NCBI GenBank assembly: GCA_965219685.1
Contig: CBDCOH010000002.1
Location: forward strand, 3,381,311-3,405,310
DNA length: 24,000 bases
Reading direction: 5' to 3'
Origin: Candidatus Spongiisociaceae bacterium
GTDB lineage: Bacteria; Actinomycetota; Acidimicrobiia; Spongiisociales; Spongiisociaceae
A program made the position numbers and the translations under genes. Shown here in pieces: positions 2,747 to 20,560 of this stretch (position 1 is its first letter; every line of letters starts with the position of its first letter). Under the pieces are notes generated by a model. That model was given only the letters and a program-made list of their open reading frames with translations. It did not search any database and was not told the DNA's origin.

Positions 2747-2776
2747 TTGGTCAAGTCTGATCTAGTCAGATAAACT
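2747..2776 (+). promoter_or_regulatory. Candidate promoter of the TA operon, giving a leaderless transcript
   Basis: TTGGTC (2747-2752), 18 nt, then TAAACT (2771-2776), which lies 7 nt before the ATG at 2784. There is no SD before that ATG. Inverted arms TCTGA/TCAGA (2756-2760 / 2766-2770) lie in the spacer and could be an operator. Confidence 0.25.
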
Positions 2777-2783
2777 GGCCTGT

Positions 2784-3017
2784 ATGATCGTCAACGTTTA
2801 CGAGGCCAAGACCCATTTCTCCAAGCTCCTCGACCGTGTTCTGAACGGTGAGGAGATCGTGATAGGTCGGGCGGGGAGGCCCGTCGCCCGACTAGTTCCC
2901 TTCGTCGCGAAGCGAACTCCAAGGGTGCCGGGCAGGCTGGCCGGCAAGATCGTCATGGCTGAGGACTTCGACGCGACACCCGGCTGGCTGCTCGACGCTT
3001 TCGAGGGCCGGGAGTGA
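2784..3017 (+). CDS. Type II antitoxin, Phd/YefM family
   Basis: MIVNVYEAKTHFSKLLDRV..GEEIVI.RAGRPVARLVP is the classic Phd/YefM N-terminus. 77 aa. Its stop overlaps the toxin start. Confidence 0.85.
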   Translation: MIVNVYEAKTHFSKLLDRVLNGEEIVIGRAGRPVARLVPFVAKRTPRVPGRLAGKIVMAEDFDATPGWLLDAFEGRE

Positions 3018-3385
3018 ATCTACTGCTGGACACCCACACCGCGTTGTGGTGGTTCAGCAACGAGGGTCTCTTCACAGGAGGGGCGGATGCCATCGCGGAT
3101 CCCAACAACCTCGTTTACGTAAGCGTGGCCAGCATCTGGGAGGTCAGCATCAAGCAGACCATCGGCAAACTCGCCATCAGTGATGAGTTCTACACGTTTG
3201 TCTACGAGGACTTCGAGCCTCTTCATATCACCATCTCAGACGCCCGAGCAGCCGGTGCCCTGCCGCGACACCACCGCGATCCGTTCGACAGGATGCTTGT
3301 CGCGCAGGCTCTTGCGCGCGACCTGACGCTGGTGAGTCGGGATCGGGCGTTGAGCCAGTATGGGGTCAAGTTGATGAGAGCCTGA
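3014..3385 (+). CDS. vapC: Type II toxin, VapC family PIN-domain ribonuclease
   Basis: LLLDTHTALWW (first acidic residue), EVSIKQ, and HHRDPFDRMLVAQA, a PIN motif typical of this VapC subgroup. GTGA overlap with the antitoxin. Confidence 0.85.
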   Translation: MNLLLDTHTALWWFSNEGLFTGGADAIADPNNLVYVSVASIWEVSIKQTIGKLAISDEFYTFVYEDFEPLHITISDARAAGALPRHHRDPFDRMLVAQALARDLTLVSRDRALSQYGVKLMRA

Positions 3386-3516
3386 ACCGGGTTCGATACC
3401 TCCCAGGATGTGTTGTGGGCGCAGCCCGGAAGGCGTAACTCCCTACAAGGCCCCTTACCGTCGACACGTGGCCCGAAAAACTCCTACAATGGCCACCCTC
3501 CGGCAACCGGCAACGG

Positions 3517-7749: not shown

Positions 7750-8405
7750 GGAGTAGCAGGATCTCGTGATCCTCAGCGTCACCGCGTCGGGCGCCGGTAT
7801 CGGGTTCGGTGACATCAACGATCCGCCCGGGATCGTAGGTGAGGGCCTTGCCGCCGTCCAGGGTCGCCCCGCCGCATAAGAGACCCGGTCACCGTCGGAA
7901 GACCCCCATGGATAGAGCTGCTCTCTAGTCGGCAAACGCCGCTCTCGCAGCCGCCCCGACCTCATCCTCACCGATGCCCTGTAGTATTCTTCAGGCCTAT
8001 AGGGTGGCGAATGTACATGACCTCAAGAGTCTTGCGGCGCGGCCGGGATCCGGCCTACGAAGCCGCGCCTACTCCCCGCGGCGGCCGTCTAAGTTGTAGC
8101 CAAGTCAGCAGCGATCGTGTCGAACCCTCCACGGCAACTCAAGACCCGGTGACGATCGGTCACGGCACGAAGGCAGGCGTCAGCAGCCTCCGGCTCGACT
8201 CTCTCACCGCCGCCAACCTGTCGTCCCCGAACTCACCGGCCTCGGCCGCTTCGAGCGTTCCGGTCCGCGAGGCCTGCGTTCTCGCCGCTCCCCACCCCCG
8301 CAGCCCGAGACCCCAGCGGCCCCTGTGTCACTGGGCTTCTCGCCTTGACGAGAAGGCGCTATCGGTTCATCAGGCTCCTGATTCCAGCCGTGATCGCACT
8401 GTACG

Positions 8406-9317
8406 TTGTCATGCTCCCACTCTGGCGAGGCGGCACGCACGAACACTCTGTCATGTCTGGCCGTCTTGTGGCTGATCCAGAGCCTTTTGCTTCTTCCCTA
8501 TTCGCTGTCGGGCTTGTGGAAGATATGGGACGGTCGTCTTGAATTACTGTCGTCAGACAGTATGGTCAGAATACTATTGAATCGCGCTATAGACGATGCT
8601 AGCAATATAGCGCCGCTCCTACCGCTAATCGCTCGGCATGACCTGCTCGCTCAGTCCATACTCCTGGTTACAGCCTATATAGAAGTGTTCGCACTCTTAG
8701 TGGTCTTCAGACCACATTTGCATAGAGTCTTTGGAGTCATACTGATCATCTTCCATGTCGGAAGTGATTGGCAAATGAACATCTCCTTCTTCAGCAATAT
8801 TCTCATGATCGGCCTCTTCCTAGTGCTGTCTCCGACGGCTCCAACCCGGTTTTCTCTATCTGGCTTGGTACAATCCTTACCCGTGTACGGTATCCCTTTT
8901 CGTGCCTGGGCCCGCCTTCGATCGTCGCGCGACCGCGGTCCCGTGGCCCGGGCTTGGCTCGTCTACGATGGCGAGTGCCCGCTCTGCAGGAATTACACGC
9001 AATACCTCCGGGTGAAGGAGACGGTTGGAGAACTGACACTCGTCGATGCCCGTAAGGGCGGTCCCCTCGTAGATGAGGTTCGTGAATTACCTCATGATCT
9101 CAACGATGGGATGGTTCTGAAGATGCACGGGCGTTACTACATCGGGCATGAGGCGCTGAATGTCCTTGCGTTGGTCTCGGAGAGACGTGGTGGCTTCAGT
9201 AGGGTGAATCGACTCGTATTCAGTTCGCCTCTGGCCGCACGGCTCGGCTATCCCCTGCTGCAGGCAGGACGCTGCCTGCTGCTGAGGGTCAAGGGCGTCC
9301 CACCCATACCGGAGTGA
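8406..9317 (+). CDS. Fusion protein: N-terminal polytopic membrane domain (HTTM-like) + C-terminal DCC-family (DUF393) thiol-disulfide oxidoreductase domain
   Basis: About 5 hydrophobic helices in the first ~170 aa (for example VFGVILIIFHVGSDWQMNISFFSNILMIGLFLVL). These are followed by LVYDGECPLCRNYTQYL, the DCC CxxC motif. The start is uncertain: only TTG candidates exist, and a second TM-like ORF lies in another frame at 8345. Confidence 0.7.
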   Translation: MSCSHSGEAARTNTLSCLAVLWLIQSLLLLPYSLSGLWKIWDGRLELLSSDSMVRILLNRAIDDASNIAPLLPLIARHDLLAQSILLVTAYIEVFALLVVFRPHLHRVFGVILIIFHVGSDWQMNISFFSNILMIGLFLVLSPTAPTRFSLSGLVQSLPVYGIPFRAWARLRSSRDRGPVARAWLVYDGECPLCRNYTQYLRVKETVGELTLVDARKGGPLVDEVRELPHDLNDGMVLKMHGRYYIGHEALNVLALVSERRGGFSRVNRLVFSSPLAARLGYPLLQAGRCLLLRVKGVPPIPE

Positions 9318-10848: not shown

Positions 10849-11433
10849 GTGACCTCCGACGAGACATCCTCGTCGTCCATGTTCGCCTCGGCTCGGGAAC
10901 GGCGGCTCTGGACGTGGACCTTGGCGGTCGTGGTGGCGATCTACTCGACTCTCGGCCTCGCACGGACCCTGGCCGGAATCCTGCGAGAGGAAGGTCTCCT
11001 CGTAGCCGCCTTCGCCGCCGGCATGGTGCTCGTCGGAGCAACGGTCTTGGTCATGGGGCTGAGGAGTCGGCCGGGGGCCGCAGAAGTTGGCATCGCGCTG
11101 GGTATCGCGGCCGCGTACTTCATGGTGATGGTCCGGATGGCCCTCCCGGAGGAGCGCACCCACCTCATTGAATACGGTGTCGTGGCCGTCTTCATCCACG
11201 AAGCGCTGAAGGAGCGGGCCGGCCAGGGCCGGCGTGTCCCCGTACCCGCGCTGATCGCAGTTGGGGCGGCGTCCGCGGTAGGAACGGTCGACGAGGGCAT
11301 CCAGGCGTTCCTTCCCAGCCGTGTCTTCGACACCGAGGACATCCTGTTCAACGTCCTCGCAGCAACGATGGCAGTCGCCTCGAGCGCGGCGCTGGGCTGG
11401 GCCCGCAGCCGCAGGAGAGTCGGTAGCCGGTAG
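10849..11433 (+). CDS. VanZ-like family membrane protein
   Basis: Four hydrophobic segments and the C-terminal VanZ pattern DEGIQAFLPSRVFDTEDILFNVLAA. GTG at 10849 lies 9 nt after AAGGAG. Confidence 0.7.
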   Translation: MTSDETSSSSMFASARERRLWTWTLAVVVAIYSTLGLARTLAGILREEGLLVAAFAAGMVLVGATVLVMGLRSRPGAAEVGIALGIAAAYFMVMVRMALPEERTHLIEYGVVAVFIHEALKERAGQGRRVPVPALIAVGAASAVGTVDEGIQAFLPSRVFDTEDILFNVLAATMAVASSAALGWARSRRRVGSR

Positions 11434-11801
11434 CAACGGTAGGCCTCCAGGTGTGGTGATCGAACAGCCCGCGAGCGCGAAGAGCGCTCACTGACCGGAG
11501 CCACTGTGCCGCCCGATCACCGGCGAGCAGCCCAAGGCCGGCTGGCAGTATTCCATCAGGAAGGTGGTATCCCCTTCATATATCTACTCGCCGTCCTTCG
11601 CCTCTGATTCCGAAGGAGGTCGGTCAGCCTCGTGCGTGCGGAGTCTCGTCGCTGCGCCGAACTCGGGGCTTGCTGCCCCATCGAACTTCGGGCTCGAGCG
11701 AGTCAAGCCTTGAGAACGTGTCCCAAGCCGATAGCTTCCGAAAACTCTCGTGTGTTCATACAATTGAGCCCAAGCCGCTCGCAGGCAGTCCGGATGCTGA
11801 T

Positions 11802-12212
11802 CTAGATCGGCAGTCGATCCACCTGGTCCTCGGTTACCACAAAGCATTCCTGGGCTTCGTTTTCCCTCCATAACTGCAGTGCTAGGGCCAGAACGTAAGG
11901 ATCCGCCGGGTCGTTCTCTGCGTTCGCTTCGATAACTTCACCGGCCACTGCCATAACTTGCTCAACATATCCGGGGTCAGGTCCGCGCCGTACAATGATG
12001 TCAGGCTCAACTCCGAGAGCCCACGCCTCAGGCAGATCTATGTGGCGTTGACCCCCTACCTCCCGTGCTACCTGTCGCGGGAACGTGATCCTCCCGTTCT
12101 CGACCATCTCCTCCAGGTGTTTGGCGAACCGCCATTGATCCCTGGCCTTGACTACCTGTTTGAACGCAATGATCGAAGAGGTGTCAAGGACGTAGATCGT
12201 GTCATCCAGCAT
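11802..12212 (-). CDS. DUF4411 family (PIN-like nuclease fold) protein, ending at an in-frame TAG; homology appears to continue to 11703
   Basis: N-terminus IYVLDTSSIIAFKQ...WRFAKHLEEMVENGRI and ..DPYVLALA...CFVVTED fit the DUF4411 pattern as I recall it. The ATG directly abuts the upstream stop (TAGATG). Confidence 0.7.
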   Translation of the reverse strand: MLDDTIYVLDTSSIIAFKQVVKARDQWRFAKHLEEMVENGRITFPRQVAREVGGQRHIDLPEAWALGVEPDIIVRRGPDPGYVEQVMAVAGEVIEANAENDPADPYVLALALQLWRENEAQECFVVTEDQVDRLPI

Positions 12213-13346
12213 CTACCCACCGACATCCACCAACTGAGCGATTTCGTCGACTTCGGTGGTGTCAACCCTGAGATAGTCGCTCAGGTCACGCAAGTTGAGA
12301 AGTCCCCGGTCAGCCGCCCGGATCAGCTCGTCGACCACAACGCCGCCGTACTCGTCGATGCGACGCTGAGTCCGATACGTGGGCCGGCCCCTAGCAAAGC
12401 CCTTGTCACGATCCCACGTACGCGCCTTCTGGTCCACTAGGGCGTAGAGGGACCAAGGTGCAACCTGAAGGCGTATCAAGCGGACGGCAGCCGCACGAAT
12501 ACTCACCTTGAACTTGGCAGCAACCTTCTTGGCGACACCGAAACCGTCCTCTCCCGCAGGGATCTGATCCACGAACTGCAGCACGGATTCTCTCGGGAGC
12601 AGGACCGAAGCGGCGAACTGCTCACACCATCGTTCCTCGTCGGCAACGTCGCTAACGAGGTCAACACACGCCGACTCGCTCCGTAAGGTGAGGTGACCGA
12701 GTTCATGGAAGGCTGTGAAAACACGTGCCTCCCGGTTGTAGGCCGTGTTCACAGAAATAACTGGCGCGACCTCGTCCGAGAACGAGAAGCCCCGGATACC
12801 GTCCGGCCCGAGTTGGAGGGTGAACATGAGAATCCCGCGGCCCTCGAGCCTCGCCCGCCACCAGCGCCAAGGATCAACACGCGAGTCCCAGGACATCTGT
12901 AGATCAACGCTCACCCCGAGCCAGCGGCGGACCCGCGTCCCGGCCATCTCCGTATCTTCGTCTCGACCGAGCCGGGGCAGATCGGCCCGGCGACCCTGCT
13001 GCCTAAACAAGAAGGACATCAGCTTCTGCAGTCTGCGGGAGCGCCTCACCCAGAGGCGTTCCCGTTCCGACAGAGCACGGCCTACCTGGCCTGGAGACCC
13101 CCTCAACACTGGGACGCTCAATGGCTCAGGTGCGCGGGGAGCGAAGAACAGAGCGCTAGGCCGCTTCAAAGTCTTGAACAGCCGTGTGAACTCGCCCTGC
13201 GACGGTCTAGAAACACCGTCCATCCAATCCCTCAGCACAACGGCGTCTACCCCTACCCTCCCAGAGACATCCTCCAGCAAAAGGCCGCTCTCTTCGACAG
13301 CCCAGCGGACAACCTCGGCGTTCACAGGCACAAAGGACTTCGCCAT
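12213..13346 (-). CDS. XRE-type HTH domain fused to ImmA/IrrE-family (Peptidase_M78/DUF955) zinc metalloprotease
   Basis: N-terminal VNAEVVRWAVEESGLLLEDVSGRVGVDAVVLRDWMDGVSRPSQGEFTRLFKTLKRPSALFF (HTH). HEXXH motif in TAFHELGHLTL. ATG at 13346 is preceded by GGAGGAAGG. The track start at 13535 is an unsupported extension. Confidence 0.8.
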   Translation of the reverse strand: MAKSFVPVNAEVVRWAVEESGLLLEDVSGRVGVDAVVLRDWMDGVSRPSQGEFTRLFKTLKRPSALFFAPRAPEPLSVPVLRGSPGQVGRALSERERLWVRRSRRLQKLMSFLFRQQGRRADLPRLGRDEDTEMAGTRVRRWLGVSVDLQMSWDSRVDPWRWWRARLEGRGILMFTLQLGPDGIRGFSFSDEVAPVISVNTAYNREARVFTAFHELGHLTLRSESACVDLVSDVADEERWCEQFAASVLLPRESVLQFVDQIPAGEDGFGVAKKVAAKFKVSIRAAAVRLIRLQVAPWSLYALVDQKARTWDRDKGFARGRPTYRTQRRIDEYGGVVVDELIRAADRGLLNLRDLSDYLRVDTTEVDEIAQLVDVGG

Positions 13347-13699
13347 CCACCTTCCTCCACTCAAACCACCATAGCCGCCGGGTGAGACCAGGCCGGCTAG
13401 ACCACTGGCTTTGGAGGGTGGTCGAAAACGGGGTAGCGACGGTCCGTCTTCCTCTGACCAGGCATTATGTAGTCGGTCGATTCCGTGAAGGGGTTTCACA
13501 CCACCCTCCTCGACCGTCCGTGCCAGTGAGGCCACACCAACCTCCCGGCACGGCCCGGCAAGAAGGGCGGCGAGCCAGAACTGTCCAGATCGTCTAGCGC
13601 CGCAGTGGAATCGAGGATCAGGAGACTATCCAGGCGGAAAATGCCATATTGTCCTGGGTTTAGGGCGCTGAGAACCCGTGTGAGACCGTCAGGATCCGG

Positions 13700-13774
13700 T
13701 GGGCCCACCTGGATTTGAACCAGGGACCTCATCCTTATCAGGGATGCGCTCTAACCAACCTGAGCTATGGGCCC
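13700..13774 (-). tRNA. tRNA-Ile (anticodon GAT)
   Basis: Minus-strand sequence GGGCCCATAGCTCAGGTTGGTTAGAGCGCATCCCTGATAAGGATGAGGTCCCTGGTTCAAATCCAGGTGGGCCCA. 7-bp acceptor stem, D stem GCTC/GAGC, anticodon stem CATCC/GGATG with loop CTGATAA, T arm CCTGG-TTCAAAT-CCAGG. CCA is not fully encoded (CCG). A TATTAT box lies 10 nt upstream of the 5' end. Confidence 0.93.
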
Positions 13775-13820
13775 GGAGAGCCAGATAATACACCGCCGCC
13801 GACTCCTTCCGGAAGGCGGG

Positions 13821-14654
13821 TTAGCGGGCGATCCAGGCCTCGGCGATCTGACCGACATACTCCAGCACCTCGGACGTCGGAGCGGTGGGTAGGCAGACGA
13901 CTACCCGGTCGCATCCGGCTTCGGCCATCTCCTCGATCCGGTGCGACGCGGTGTAGTCGAGGTAGACGCTGATCTCCAGCGGCCCCCTGCCGTTGGCGGC
14001 CGCGGCGGCCTGGACCTCGGCGATCTCGGCTGGGGTCACCCGGTACATGCCCAGCGGGATCCACCCGTCCGCCAACGAGGCCAGGTCTGCCTTGGTTCCG
14101 GGACCCAGGGCCGCTCCGATGTGAACAGGGGGGTGGGGATGCTGGAGGGGTTTGGGTCCTTGGCGACTCGCAGCCAGGTGCATGCTGTCACCCGCGAACT
14201 CCGTGGTATCGGTGGTCCACAGTGCCTTGACCATCCTCAGCTTCTCCCGCGTGATCGCCCGCCGCTGGTCGAAGGGGATACCGTGGCTCTCGTACTCCTT
14301 CCTGAGCCATCCGTACCCGACGCCGAACAGGAACCGGCCGCCCGAGATGCGGTCGAGGGTGGCGGTGGCCTTGGCCGTCCAGATCGGATCCCGGATCCCG
14401 AGCAAGGTGATCCCGGTCCCGAGCAGCATCCTGGCGGTGGAGGAGGCGACCGCGGCCAGGGAGGTGAACGCGTCGTAGAGGATCTCGTACTTCTCGGGTA
14501 ACCGGCGGTCCCCGAGTTCCTGCTGCTGGGCCAGTGGCATGTGGGAGTGCTCCGGCAACCACAGAGATTCGAAGCCGTGGGCTTCGAGCTCGACGCCCAA
14601 CTCGGCGGGCTGGATCGAATCGGCCGTGAAGAAGATGGAGGCGCCTATGTGCAC
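13821..14654 (-). CDS. Luciferase-like monooxygenase (LLM) class, probable F420-dependent oxidoreductase
   Basis: HIGASIFFTADS...ELGVELEAHGFESLWLPEHSHMP is the typical N-terminus of the actinobacterial LLM F420 class. 277 aa. GTG start lies 7 nt after the sulfatase stop. Confidence 0.85.
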   Translation of the reverse strand: MHIGASIFFTADSIQPAELGVELEAHGFESLWLPEHSHMPLAQQQELGDRRLPEKYEILYDAFTSLAAVASSTARMLLGTGITLLGIRDPIWTAKATATLDRISGGRFLFGVGYGWLRKEYESHGIPFDQRRAITREKLRMVKALWTTDTTEFAGDSMHLAASRQGPKPLQHPHPPVHIGAALGPGTKADLASLADGWIPLGMYRVTPAEIAEVQAAAAANGRGPLEISVYLDYTASHRIEEMAEAGCDRVVVCLPTAPTSEVLEYVGQIAEAWIAR

Positions 14655-19732: not shown

Positions 19733-20560
19733 TTACTTGAGACCTCCCTGGGTGACTCCTTCTATAACGAACCTCTGGCCAACAAAAAACAGAATACCCA
19801 CGGGCAGTATCCCGATGACGGCCGCAGCCATCAACATGTTGATGAACACGGCGCCCTCCGTCTGGAAGGAGACCAGACCCAGTTGCACGACACGCAACTC
19901 CGCGTCGGCGGTCACGAACAGCGGCCAGAGGAGGGCGTTCCAGGACCAGATGAACGTGATGAGAAAGACGGTCACGGCTGCTGCCCGGACCAGGGGCAGC
20001 CCGATCGACCAGAACGCCCTGGCCTCCGAGCTGCCGTCCACGTACGCCGAGTCGAACAGGTCGTCGGGGATTCCCAGGAACTCCTGGCGGAACATGAACA
20101 CCGCGAACGCCCCGGCCATCCACGGCACGATCAGGGCGGTGTAGGTGTTGTACCAGCCGAGATCGTTGATGAGCACGTAGTTGGCGATGAAGGTGGCCTC
20201 GAAGGGGATCATGAAACTGGCAAGGACGAGCATCAGGATCACCTTCCGTCCCCGGAACCGGATCCGCACGAGGGCATAGCCCGCCAGCGCGCCGAACAGC
20301 ACGTTCCCACTCGCCGAGAGGACCGCCACGAAGAGGGAGTTGAGTATCCAGCGGGCCATCATGGTCTCGAGGAAGATGTCGATGTAGGTGGTGATGGACG
20401 CCGATTCGGGAATCAACGTGGGAGGAACCAGCAGAGCCTCGTCCAAGGGCTTCAGCGAAGTGGTCACCATCCAGTAGAGAGGCGCCAGGGCGAAGGCACA
20501 GAGCACGACCAGCACGACATGGGCGAGCGTGCGGGTCTGGGACGAGTGGCCGGCTGCCAT
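19733..20560 (-). CDS. Carbohydrate ABC transporter permease (MalG-like)
   Basis: Six-TM permease with an EAA-like loop (DSAYVDGSSEARAFWSIGLPLVR). The ATG at 20560 overlaps the upstream TGA (TGATG). Confidence 0.85.
   Translation of the reverse strand: MAAGHSSQTRTLAHVVLVVLCAFALAPLYWMVTTSLKPLDEALLVPPTLIPESASITTYIDIFLETMMARWILNSLFVAVLSASGNVLFGALAGYALVRIRFRGRKVILMLVLASFMIPFEATFIANYVLINDLGWYNTYTALIVPWMAGAFAVFMFRQEFLGIPDDLFDSAYVDGSSEARAFWSIGLPLVRAAAVTVFLITFIWSWNALLWPLFVTADAELRVVQLGLVSFQTEGAVFINMLMAAAVIGILPVGILFFVGQRFVIEGVTQGGLK

Follow-up and report, generated by a model that had tools for sequence, protein, structure and literature searches.

We analyzed a 24,000-nt stretch of the genome of Candidatus Spongiisociaceae bacterium, a member of the Acidimicrobiia (assembly GCA_965219685.1, contig CBDCOH010000002.1, positions 3,381,311 to 3,405,310). 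In this stretch, here called the window, two coupled genes lie between a gene for a VanZ-like membrane protein and the 3′ end of tRNA-Ile(GAT), the sole tRNA found by ARAGORN in the window. Both genes are on the same strand as the tRNA, downstream of its 3′ end. The first encodes a protein in which a helix-turn-helix (HTH) domain is fused to an ImmA/IrrE zinc peptidase, and the second encodes a DUF4411 protein with a PIN-like nuclease fold, whose reading frame is broken by a premature stop codon. A sequence-only reading of this DNA had proposed both assignments, and they proved right: the Peptidase_M78 and DUF4411 matches in Pfam are significant (Table 1), and the HTH, for which the HTH_3 match is sub-threshold (E = 0.02-0.03), is recognizable in the predicted structure. 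The location of the pair, the TAGATG stop-start junction that couples its genes (12210-12215), the FHELGH motif of the peptidase, and the non-coding flanks of 351 nt (13347-13697) and 270 nt (11434-11703) were confirmed, and two G+C counts quoted there, 31/60 and 41/60, are exact.

The gene pair and the VapBC52-type family

Family profiles connect both genes to a toxin–antitoxin complex of solved structure. A profile of the ImmA family (alignment A1, 24 ImmA homologs) matched VapB52 in PDB 9vzy_A with E = 9e-49, positions 8-379 aligning with chain residues 2-387 and the alignment running through the C-terminal domain, for which the role is taken from PMC13273310. The antitoxin sequence used singly matched the same chain with E = 2e-13. 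The DUF4411 family profile (A3) matched VapC52 over its full length (9vzy_D, E = 2e-32; 9vzz_A, E = 2.5e-30); the single toxin sequence had no match in the PDB, and the family profile alone revealed the relationship. Judged by these alignments, the pair is a member of the VapBC52-type toxin–antitoxin family, which has already been characterized. The sequence-only reading had seen a sensor or antitoxin beside a nuclease effector, as this full-length homology bears out. It had also stated that the function of the gene pair lacked experimental proof, and here it was mistaken. The homologous Rv2515c/Rv2514c pair of Mycobacterium tuberculosis was tested in 2019, when toxicity and rescue were shown (PMC6504116), and was characterized structurally and mechanistically as VapBC52 in 2026 (PMC13273310). 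In that system, experiments have already shown what an HTH-ImmA and DUF4411 pair does.

VapC52 is a DUF4411 PIN tRNase that cuts anticodon or variable loops, and VapB52, built of an N-terminal HTH, a middle domain with the IrrE peptidase, and a C-terminal helical domain, binds the VapC52 dimer in a 1:2 complex (PMC13273310). A cysteine switch in VapB52 blocks the zinc site until single-stranded DNA (ssDNA) binds; the peptidase then cuts off its own N-terminal domain at an FR motif, and this self-cleavage frees the toxin (PMC13273310). M. smegmatis that overexpresses VapC52 is protected from phage D29, and VapC52 is also neutralized by non-cognate antitoxins (PMC13273310). The architecture had been anticipated from genomes. 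Three-component toxin–antitoxin systems made of Xre-COG2856 fusions and PIN toxins were predicted by Makarova et al. (2009, PMC2701414), and Matelska et al. (2017, PMC5499597) specifically described HTH-DUF955 with DUF4411.1; the window has exactly this arrangement, in which the PIN-like DUF4411.1 gene comes after a fused Xre-COG2856 gene. DUF4411.1 was found to be mostly monocistronic in Actinobacteria (PMC5499597), whereas in the Acidimicrobiia and other actinobacterial loci assembled here, which were retrieved via their ImmA gene, it is paired.

The window pair resembles VapBC52 in gene order, with the antitoxin first and the toxin adjoining it, in the three-domain antitoxin with its HExxH motif, glutamate, and cysteine switch, and in the DUF4411 PIN toxin family, which in its full-length form carries an extra C-terminal helix. 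It differs in being distant in sequence, in a linker motif that reads L-R in place of F-R, in a toxin that ends at codon 137, and in its host, as the closest copies are in metagenome-assembled genomes (MAGs) of Acidimicrobiia. A second system with a comparable antitoxin is RosmerTA (RmrT/RmrA), a defense system in which ImmA-type antitoxins were placed by Millman et al. (2022, bioRxiv 10.1101/2022.05.11.491447) and by Ernits et al. (2023, PMC10440598), who also found an ImmA-like antitoxin hub to associate with PIN-like toxins. The likeness lies in the HTH-Zn-peptidase antitoxin, which 14 PADLOC RmrA models match in our protein (best E = 9.6e-17). The effectors differ: RmrT of Gordonia phage Kita depolarizes membranes and is not a PIN nuclease (PMC10440598), and no PADLOC RmrT model matched the DUF4411 protein, truncated or repaired, at E values up to 10.

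The longest open reading frame (ORF) of the first gene opens with a GTG at 13535, whereas its real start codon is the ATG at 13346, behind the GGAGGA Shine-Dalgarno sequence. The resulting 377-aa protein is identical to one recorded in a protein collection (P0001). Its AlphaFold2 model (predicted local distance difference test score, pLDDT, 85) has a five-helix N-terminal domain, an IrrE/ImmA-type (M78) zinc peptidase core, and a four-helix C-terminal domain. In Foldseek, the N-terminal domain matched C.BclI, C.AhdI, P22 c2, and the N-terminal domain of CapH with a root-mean-square deviation of approximately 1.1-2.0 Å, and also C.Csp231I, the homolog named in the VapB52 paper; the middle domain matched PprI/IrrE. 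An XRE-type HTH fold is therefore confirmed at the level of the model, and by analogy this domain is the presumable equivalent of the VapB52 N-terminal domain, which binds the toxin dimer (PMC13273310). The catalytic residues H214, E215, and H218 align with H216, E217, and H220 of VapB52. The putative cleavage site includes R82, invariant in 24 homologs, and a preceding residue that is L, F, or Y among them and L in the window protein; residues 83-86 have pLDDT below 50, as expected of a flexible linker, and the switch loop (227-233) is also modeled with low pLDDT. As far as alignment can tell, the antitoxin gene is intact, with all catalytic and switch residues kept.

The second gene is not intact. 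Its 136-aa ORF matches DUF4411 over positions 1-121 of 159, with a sub-threshold PIN_4 match, and is annotated by gene callers as a 136-aa protein (P0042). Read past the TAG, the frame runs through 32 more sense codons to a TGA at 11703-11705, and the DUF4411 match lengthens to positions 1-154 of 159 (E = 4.5e-12), the score rising from 31 to 46.5 bits; this is therefore a toxin-like gene interrupted by a nonsense codon. Codon 137, TAG in the window, is AAG in three related loci (L001, L002, L003) and encodes Lys in three others (L165, L166, L167), and K137 is conserved in at least 90% of 33 homologs. An AlphaFold2 model of the closest intact ortholog (pLDDT 90.9), from which the toxin secondary structure is taken, has a PIN fold whose top Foldseek matches are VapC toxins, Nmd4, and Nob1, and D10, E51, and A103-D104-P105, which include three of its acidic residues, are invariant in 45 homologs. 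The segment lost by the TAG, at codon 137 of 169, holds the conserved C144 and F157 and the helix 154-160, which aligns with alpha8 of VapC52, the helix that forms the toxin dimer interface. Because the TAG deletes the last core beta-strand and two helices, among them the dimerization helix, the effector is most likely inactive, with loss of toxicity the likeliest outcome for the truncated product.

The mutation looks recent, because the toxin gene carries no lesion besides the TAG, its pairwise ratios of nonsynonymous to synonymous substitution rates (dN/dS), 0.17-0.23, are similar to those of intact pairs, and its lineage-specific changes are 7:8 (synonymous to nonsynonymous), against 21:9 in the antitoxin gene. 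The same observations can be read as signs that the module still functions, either through a toxic 136-aa PIN protein or because the assembly is wrong at the TAG or the codon is read through. The acidic positions D10, E51, D104, and E128/D129 all precede the stop, and because all four are kept the truncated product may retain residual activity; no other lesion is present, dN/dS is like that of intact copies, and gene callers accept the short protein. We nevertheless hold a working module to be quite improbable. The missing 33 residues contain a core beta-strand, C144, F157, and the dimer-interface helix of VapC52, and the independent toxin lesions in relatives described below mean that loss is common. 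Read-through or reassignment of TAG was rejected, as TAG is a working stop in this genome that ends both the antitoxin gene and the VanZ-like gene.

Table 1. Features of the locus, with positions in the window, strand, and basis of assignment
Feature	Positions	Strand	Basis
VanZ-like membrane protein gene, flanking	10849-11433	plus	Pfam VanZ sub-threshold, E = 1e-5
Inserted DNA, 2,266 nt (2.27 kb)	11431-13696	none	absent from close relatives L083 and L084
Mobile two-gene cassette	11613-13407	minus	blastn, 77-88% identity to other loci within these limits only
Orphaned toxin 3′ end, 32 codons plus original TGA	11703-11801	minus	helix 140-147, strand 150-152, helix 154-160
Premature TAG, codon 137 (of 169)	11802-11804	minus	from AAG (Lys); one A-to-T transversion, coding strand, at 11804
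Truncated VapC52-like DUF4411 toxin ORF, 136 aa	11802-12212	minus	Pfam DUF4411 E = 2.6e-7, positions 1-121/159
VapB52-like antitoxin/sensor gene, 377 aa plus TAG stop	12213-13346	minus	Pfam Peptidase_M78 E = 1e-12
C-terminal four-helix domain, aa 325-377	12216-12374	minus	helices 325-333, 335-346, 352-359, 363-372 (AlphaFold2)
E238, putative third zinc ligand, aligned with E245 of VapB52	12633-12635	minus	invariant in A1
C227, aligned with "cysteine switch" C229 of VapB52	12666-12668	minus	conserved in at least 90% of homologs
HExxH zinc-binding/catalytic motif (H214, E215, H218; FHELGH)	12693-12707	minus	invariant in alignment A1
L81-R82, aligned with "FR" self-cleavage motif of VapB52, linker of N-terminal and middle domains	13101-13106	minus	9vzy_A alignment (D-F-R)
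N-terminal five-helix HTH domain, aa 1-70	13137-13346	minus	helices 10-19, 24-31, 35-43, 50-60, 64-68 (AlphaFold2)
Shine-Dalgarno GGAGGA of antitoxin gene	13353-13358	minus	read from sequence; conserved in relatives
Candidate -10 hexamer TATGGT, 22 nt upstream of ATG	13368-13373	minus	inference from conservation
tRNA-Ile(GAT)	13698-13774	minus	ARAGORN; Rfam tRNA, 70 bits

The pairing of the two genes is a general property of the family. Alignment A1 was used to scan genomes, metagenomes, and viral contigs, and returned 80 loci in species-representative genomes, 80 metagenome loci, and 27 viral-contig loci. The genome loci span Acidimicrobiia, other Actinomycetota, Chloroflexota, Acidobacteriota, Myxococcota, Poribacteria, Bacteroidota, Proteobacteria, and two Archaea. 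The metagenome scan yielded no relatives with the single antitoxin protein and distant relatives only (at most 41% identity) with A1. When downstream genes were searched with a profile hidden Markov model made from the repaired toxin, DUF4411 directly followed the ImmA homolog in intact form in 62 of 82 genome loci (the 80 above plus L001 and L002) and in broken or partial form in 12 more. It was intact in 54/80 and broken or partial in 7/80 metagenome loci, most of the others being cut by contig ends, and it was present in 25 of the 27 viral-contig loci. The order is bicistronic with the antitoxin first in most of the 189 homologous loci surveyed. The VapBC52-type family thus occurs in a dozen phyla or more, Archaea among them, and moves as a minimal cassette approximately 1.8 kb long. 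Six genome loci lacking DUF4411 (L040, L041, L044, L055, L066, L075) showed no consistent partner after the ImmA homolog. Four of them (L044, L055, L066, L075; approximately 8001-9150) have ImmA homologs with 26-29% identity that share a C-terminal segment with GGGNYY or GGGDYY, and these may pair with other effectors or with none.

By homology to VapB52/VapC52, an intact module would consist of a dimeric DUF4411 PIN toxin and one large antitoxin bound to it. The HTH at the N-terminus would clamp the dimer from outside and the C-terminal helical domain would cover the active site, while the middle IrrE-type peptidase would be held inactive by a zinc-coordinating cysteine. Generated through damage to DNA or when phages replicate, ssDNA would release this switch, and the peptidase would then cut its own linker after the N-terminal domain, causing the complex to fall apart. 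The freed toxin would be expected to cut the anticodon or variable loop of tRNAs, so that growth and phage production stop. In the window copy, the sensor gene is intact and the toxin lacks its last core beta-strand and two helices, which suggests a module in decay.

The peptidase could also be explained as a classical anti-repressor of the ImmA, IrrE, or CapP type, which would cut a separate XRE repressor and so switch on a mobile element, a DNA-damage regulon, or an operon like those of the cyclic oligonucleotide-based antiphage signaling system (CBASS), with DUF4411 an unrelated neighbor. The M78 domain, a PADLOC CapP match of 4e-16, and structural likeness to IrrE/PprI speak for such a role. 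CapH/CapP of CBASS and IrrE/DdrO of Deinococcus do share with the window protein an M78/IrrE-fold peptidase for which ssDNA or DNA damage is the activator, presumably so in the window protein, and the cysteine-switch mechanism is probably common to them. However, those proteases cut a separate HTH repressor and induce transcription, whereas in the window antitoxin the HTH substrate and the protease are in one polypeptide, whose output by analogy would be release of the bound toxin. Neither the insert nor the rest of the window contains a separate XRE repressor ORF such as accompanies ImmA/ImmR, IrrE/DdrO, and CapP/CapH; the neighbors of the insert are metabolic, and neither mobile-element nor CBASS genes nor a repair regulon were found near the module among the window genes scanned. 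Across phyla, over 90% of the homologous loci that could be evaluated have a DUF4411 gene next, and the homology extends over the full length of VapB52, which cleaves itself. We regard the anti-repressor explanation as highly improbable.

Insertion at tRNA-Ile and mobility of the cassette

The VanZ-like protein shares a 90%-identity cluster with two metagenomic proteins, and the contigs that encode these, one from a Tara sample (L083) and one from JGI (L084), show the site without the pair. They are 92-94% identical to the window over the VanZ-like gene, in L084 also over the upstream creatinase gene, and the tRNA-Ile is 97.6% identical over its whole length in L083 and 98% identical over the portion covered in L084. 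Because in these two close relatives the VanZ-like gene and tRNA-Ile likewise adjoin, separated by only approximately 83 nt, the 2.27-kb segment is, on comparison of the sequences, a true insertion. Homology with the empty sites restarts at 13696, which puts the right junction 1-2 nt past the tRNA-Ile 3′ end. On the other side, the insert took the place of the spacer of approximately 83 nt and of the final three VanZ codons (TKP): the C-terminus reads GSRTKP in the orthologs P0045 and P0046 and GSR in the window (11422-11433), where a TAG stop is formed at the junction with inserted DNA. The 83-nt spacer of the empty sites had no significant match anywhere in the insert, with local alignment scores equal to those of shuffled sequence.

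The composition of the insert is distinct, as the sequence-only reading had claimed. Its G+C content is 60.6%, against 0.649 and 0.661 in the flanks (65-66%), and G+C at third codon positions is 0.71 in the antitoxin gene and 0.63 in the toxin gene versus 0.83-0.87 in four neighboring genes. The other genes scanned in the window have metabolic or transport functions, or else lack a Pfam match; among them are a sulfatase, a luciferase-like monooxygenase, creatinase/M24 peptidases, an ABC transporter, and an aldo-keto reductase. An Rfam scan of the insert returned the tRNA only, and an intrinsic terminator scan of 11300-13900 found none. Upstream of the antitoxin gene, the hexamer TATGGT is a plausible -10 promoter element judging by its conservation: T1, T3, and T6 are invariant in nine close relatives, and the sequence further upstream is not conserved. 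A second and deeper dip in G+C (0.53-0.57) occurs at 8250-9250, across a DCC1-like thiol-disulfide oxidoreductase ORF (8406-9317) and a Pfam-less ORF (8011-8475), and may be another acquired segment; smaller dips are found at 2750-3500 and 19750-20250.

Comparison with other loci narrows the unit that moves. Eight other metagenomic loci (L001, L002, L003, L165, L166, L167, L168, and L169/L170) match the cassette, and their flanks are unrelated to those of the window in every case. In loci that retain the toxin gene, the matching stretch begins at 11613-11712 and ends at 13357-13407. Since similarity is confined to the cassette, the mobile unit, as delimited by these matches, is just the two genes with approximately 40-60 nt upstream and up to 90 nt downstream, 1.7-1.8 kb in all. 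A pair on a 77-kb plasmid of Iamia sp., a cultured member of the Acidimicrobiia, adjoins a tyrosine recombinase (L198, NZ_CP050949.1:58212-61182); RefSeq labels its genes "XRE family transcriptional regulator" and "DUF4411 family protein."

The cassette often directly follows a tRNA gene. Of 135 loci surveyed, 5 have a tRNA no more than 400 nt upstream and in the same orientation (the window, L009 with Leu, L050 and L051 with Ala, and L061 with Met), versus approximately 0.4 expected by chance, a rough estimate from tRNA density. This placement may aid the annotation of defense islands and toxin–antitoxin loci in uncultured Acidimicrobiia, including MAGs named as sponge-associated. In L061 (7565-16921), an island of approximately 9.3 kb sits at tRNA-Met, with the module adjoining the tRNA at the island edge. 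From the tRNA, its order is the ImmA-DUF4411 pair and then genes for a MerR regulator, a PDZ protein, a resolvase, a tyrosine integrase, and two ThsB-like TIR proteins (Thoeris-type), and at the far end a repeat of at least 28 nt of the 3′ part of the tRNA reaches the end of the fetched locus. In L087 (4843-5203), tRNA-Ala(TGC) and tRNA-Ile(GAT) are on the opposite strand, approximately 200-500 nt downstream of the module; this is unlike the upstream tRNAs elsewhere and may be the spacer of an rRNA operon.

The suggestion that the insert is the remnant of a tRNA-targeted island, made in the sequence-only reading, finds backing in the empty sites of L083 and L084 and in the integrase-bearing island of L061, and we consider it a reasonable one. 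The window itself shows two marks of such islands, insertion at the 3′ end of a tRNA and atypical composition, and lacks two others, an integrase and a direct repeat at the far end. A match of 21 nt to the end of tRNA-Ile (81% identity, 11890-11910) was rejected as an attachment-site (att) repeat; it is inside the toxin gene and looks like chance.

Toxin loss with a retained antitoxin

Within the close clade, defined by ImmA identity of at least 75%, L003, L165, L166, and L167 have an intact toxin, as do further protein clusters, and eleven toxin clusters with at least 71% identity are full length. Other members have lost it in different ways. In L002, the toxin gene has an N-terminal loss of 255 nt and a CGA-to-TGA change, with an intact antitoxin. 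In L168, the toxin is absent beside an adjoining ISL3 transposase, and in L169/L170, represented by two assemblies, it is absent without a DUF4411 trace; the antitoxin is intact in both cases. A further protein, P0043, is a toxin broken by a frameshift near codon 112, for which the antitoxin is not visible. L001 was not counted as a secure toxin loss, because the two compensating frameshifts in its toxin gene may be long-read indel errors; it has 5 gap openings in 2.3 kb relative to L165, which is essentially the same locus. Antitoxin dN/dS relative to relatives is 0.13-0.19. As these sequences indicate, the toxin was lost or broken independently in several close relatives while the antitoxin was kept under purifying selection. 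Toxin–antitoxin modules decay toxin first; an antitoxin cannot be lost before its toxin, and decay with the antitoxin kept is consequently the pattern to be expected.

With the empty sites, the moving cassette, and the nonsense codon in view, we consider it probable that the locus is a horizontally acquired copy of a VapBC52-type toxin–antitoxin and abortive-infection module at the tRNA-Ile 3′ end, with a disabled effector and decaying toxin first. It probably came in on a larger island that targeted the tRNA and has since lost its recombinase. Several observations weigh against this account. Among the genes scanned in the window there is no recombinase or integrase, an absence that the sequence-only reading had recorded correctly, and neither another island gene nor a defense gene; a search for att-type direct repeats found no tRNA-Ile repeat of 12 nt or more anywhere in the window. 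Because of these absences, the route of entry is drawn by analogy with islands elsewhere. The linker motif of the window protein is L-R rather than F-R, the 136-aa product keeps its acidic active-site positions, and the TAG is seen in one assembly only. PADLOC has no model that matches the toxin, and a sigma-70 consensus scan of 11300-13900 found nothing. The earlier description of a toxin–antitoxin-like or antiphage module can stand for the family, while the window copy, with a premature stop in its toxin, probably no longer works. We regard this copy as a recognizable, ordinary, and probably defunct member of a known family, for which a fitting annotation is a VapBC52-like module with a pseudogenized toxin.

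Retention of the antitoxin may also be explained by selection for a job of its own after toxin loss. It could neutralize incoming or genomic DUF4411 or VapC toxins, through anti-addiction or cross-talk, or act as an ssDNA-responsive HTH regulator. The antitoxin is intact beside a broken or lost toxin in several independent lineages (the window, L002, L168, L169/L170, and possibly L001); its dN/dS is 0.16-0.19 in pairs that are both toxin-less, close to the 0.12-0.18 of pairs that are both intact; and non-cognate antitoxins cross-neutralize VapC52 (PMC13273310). However, neutral decay predicts the same pattern for the reason given above, pairwise dN/dS mostly reflects the time before loss, the slight increase to 0.176 agrees just as well with selection that is beginning to relax, and at least 11 close toxin clusters are intact. 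We find selection of this kind unlikely. That the toxin-outliving VapB52-like HTH-IrrE proteins of the window, L002, L168, and L169/L170 are maintained as a class of stand-alone ssDNA-sensing factors, rather than as debris, is a distinctly unlikely proposition; their possible roles would be those of "anti-addiction" antidotes against incoming DUF4411 or VapC toxins or of self-cleaving transcriptional switches. With module decay as the preferred account, the repeated loss of the toxin with the sensor or antitoxin kept offers a small, testable example of how such modules come apart.

The genomic company of the intact copies fits a defense role for the family. Intact close copies sit among restriction-modification genes, AAA_15/AAA_21 ATPases, and other defense-type genes, while the window copy is alone among metabolic genes. 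In L166 (1-7131), the intact pair directly follows the type I restriction-modification genes HsdS and HsdM and is itself followed, on the opposite strand, by a second and different HTH_19/HTH_31-Peptidase_M78 gene of 393 aa. In L169 (3001-7125), which differs from L170 (GCA_009841075.1, VXMP01000047.1) at 3 positions in 7,125 nt, a convergent gene for an 846-aa N6_N4 methyltransferase lies 35 nt past the antitoxin stop and is followed by a ResIII helicase gene, together a restriction-modification-like pair.

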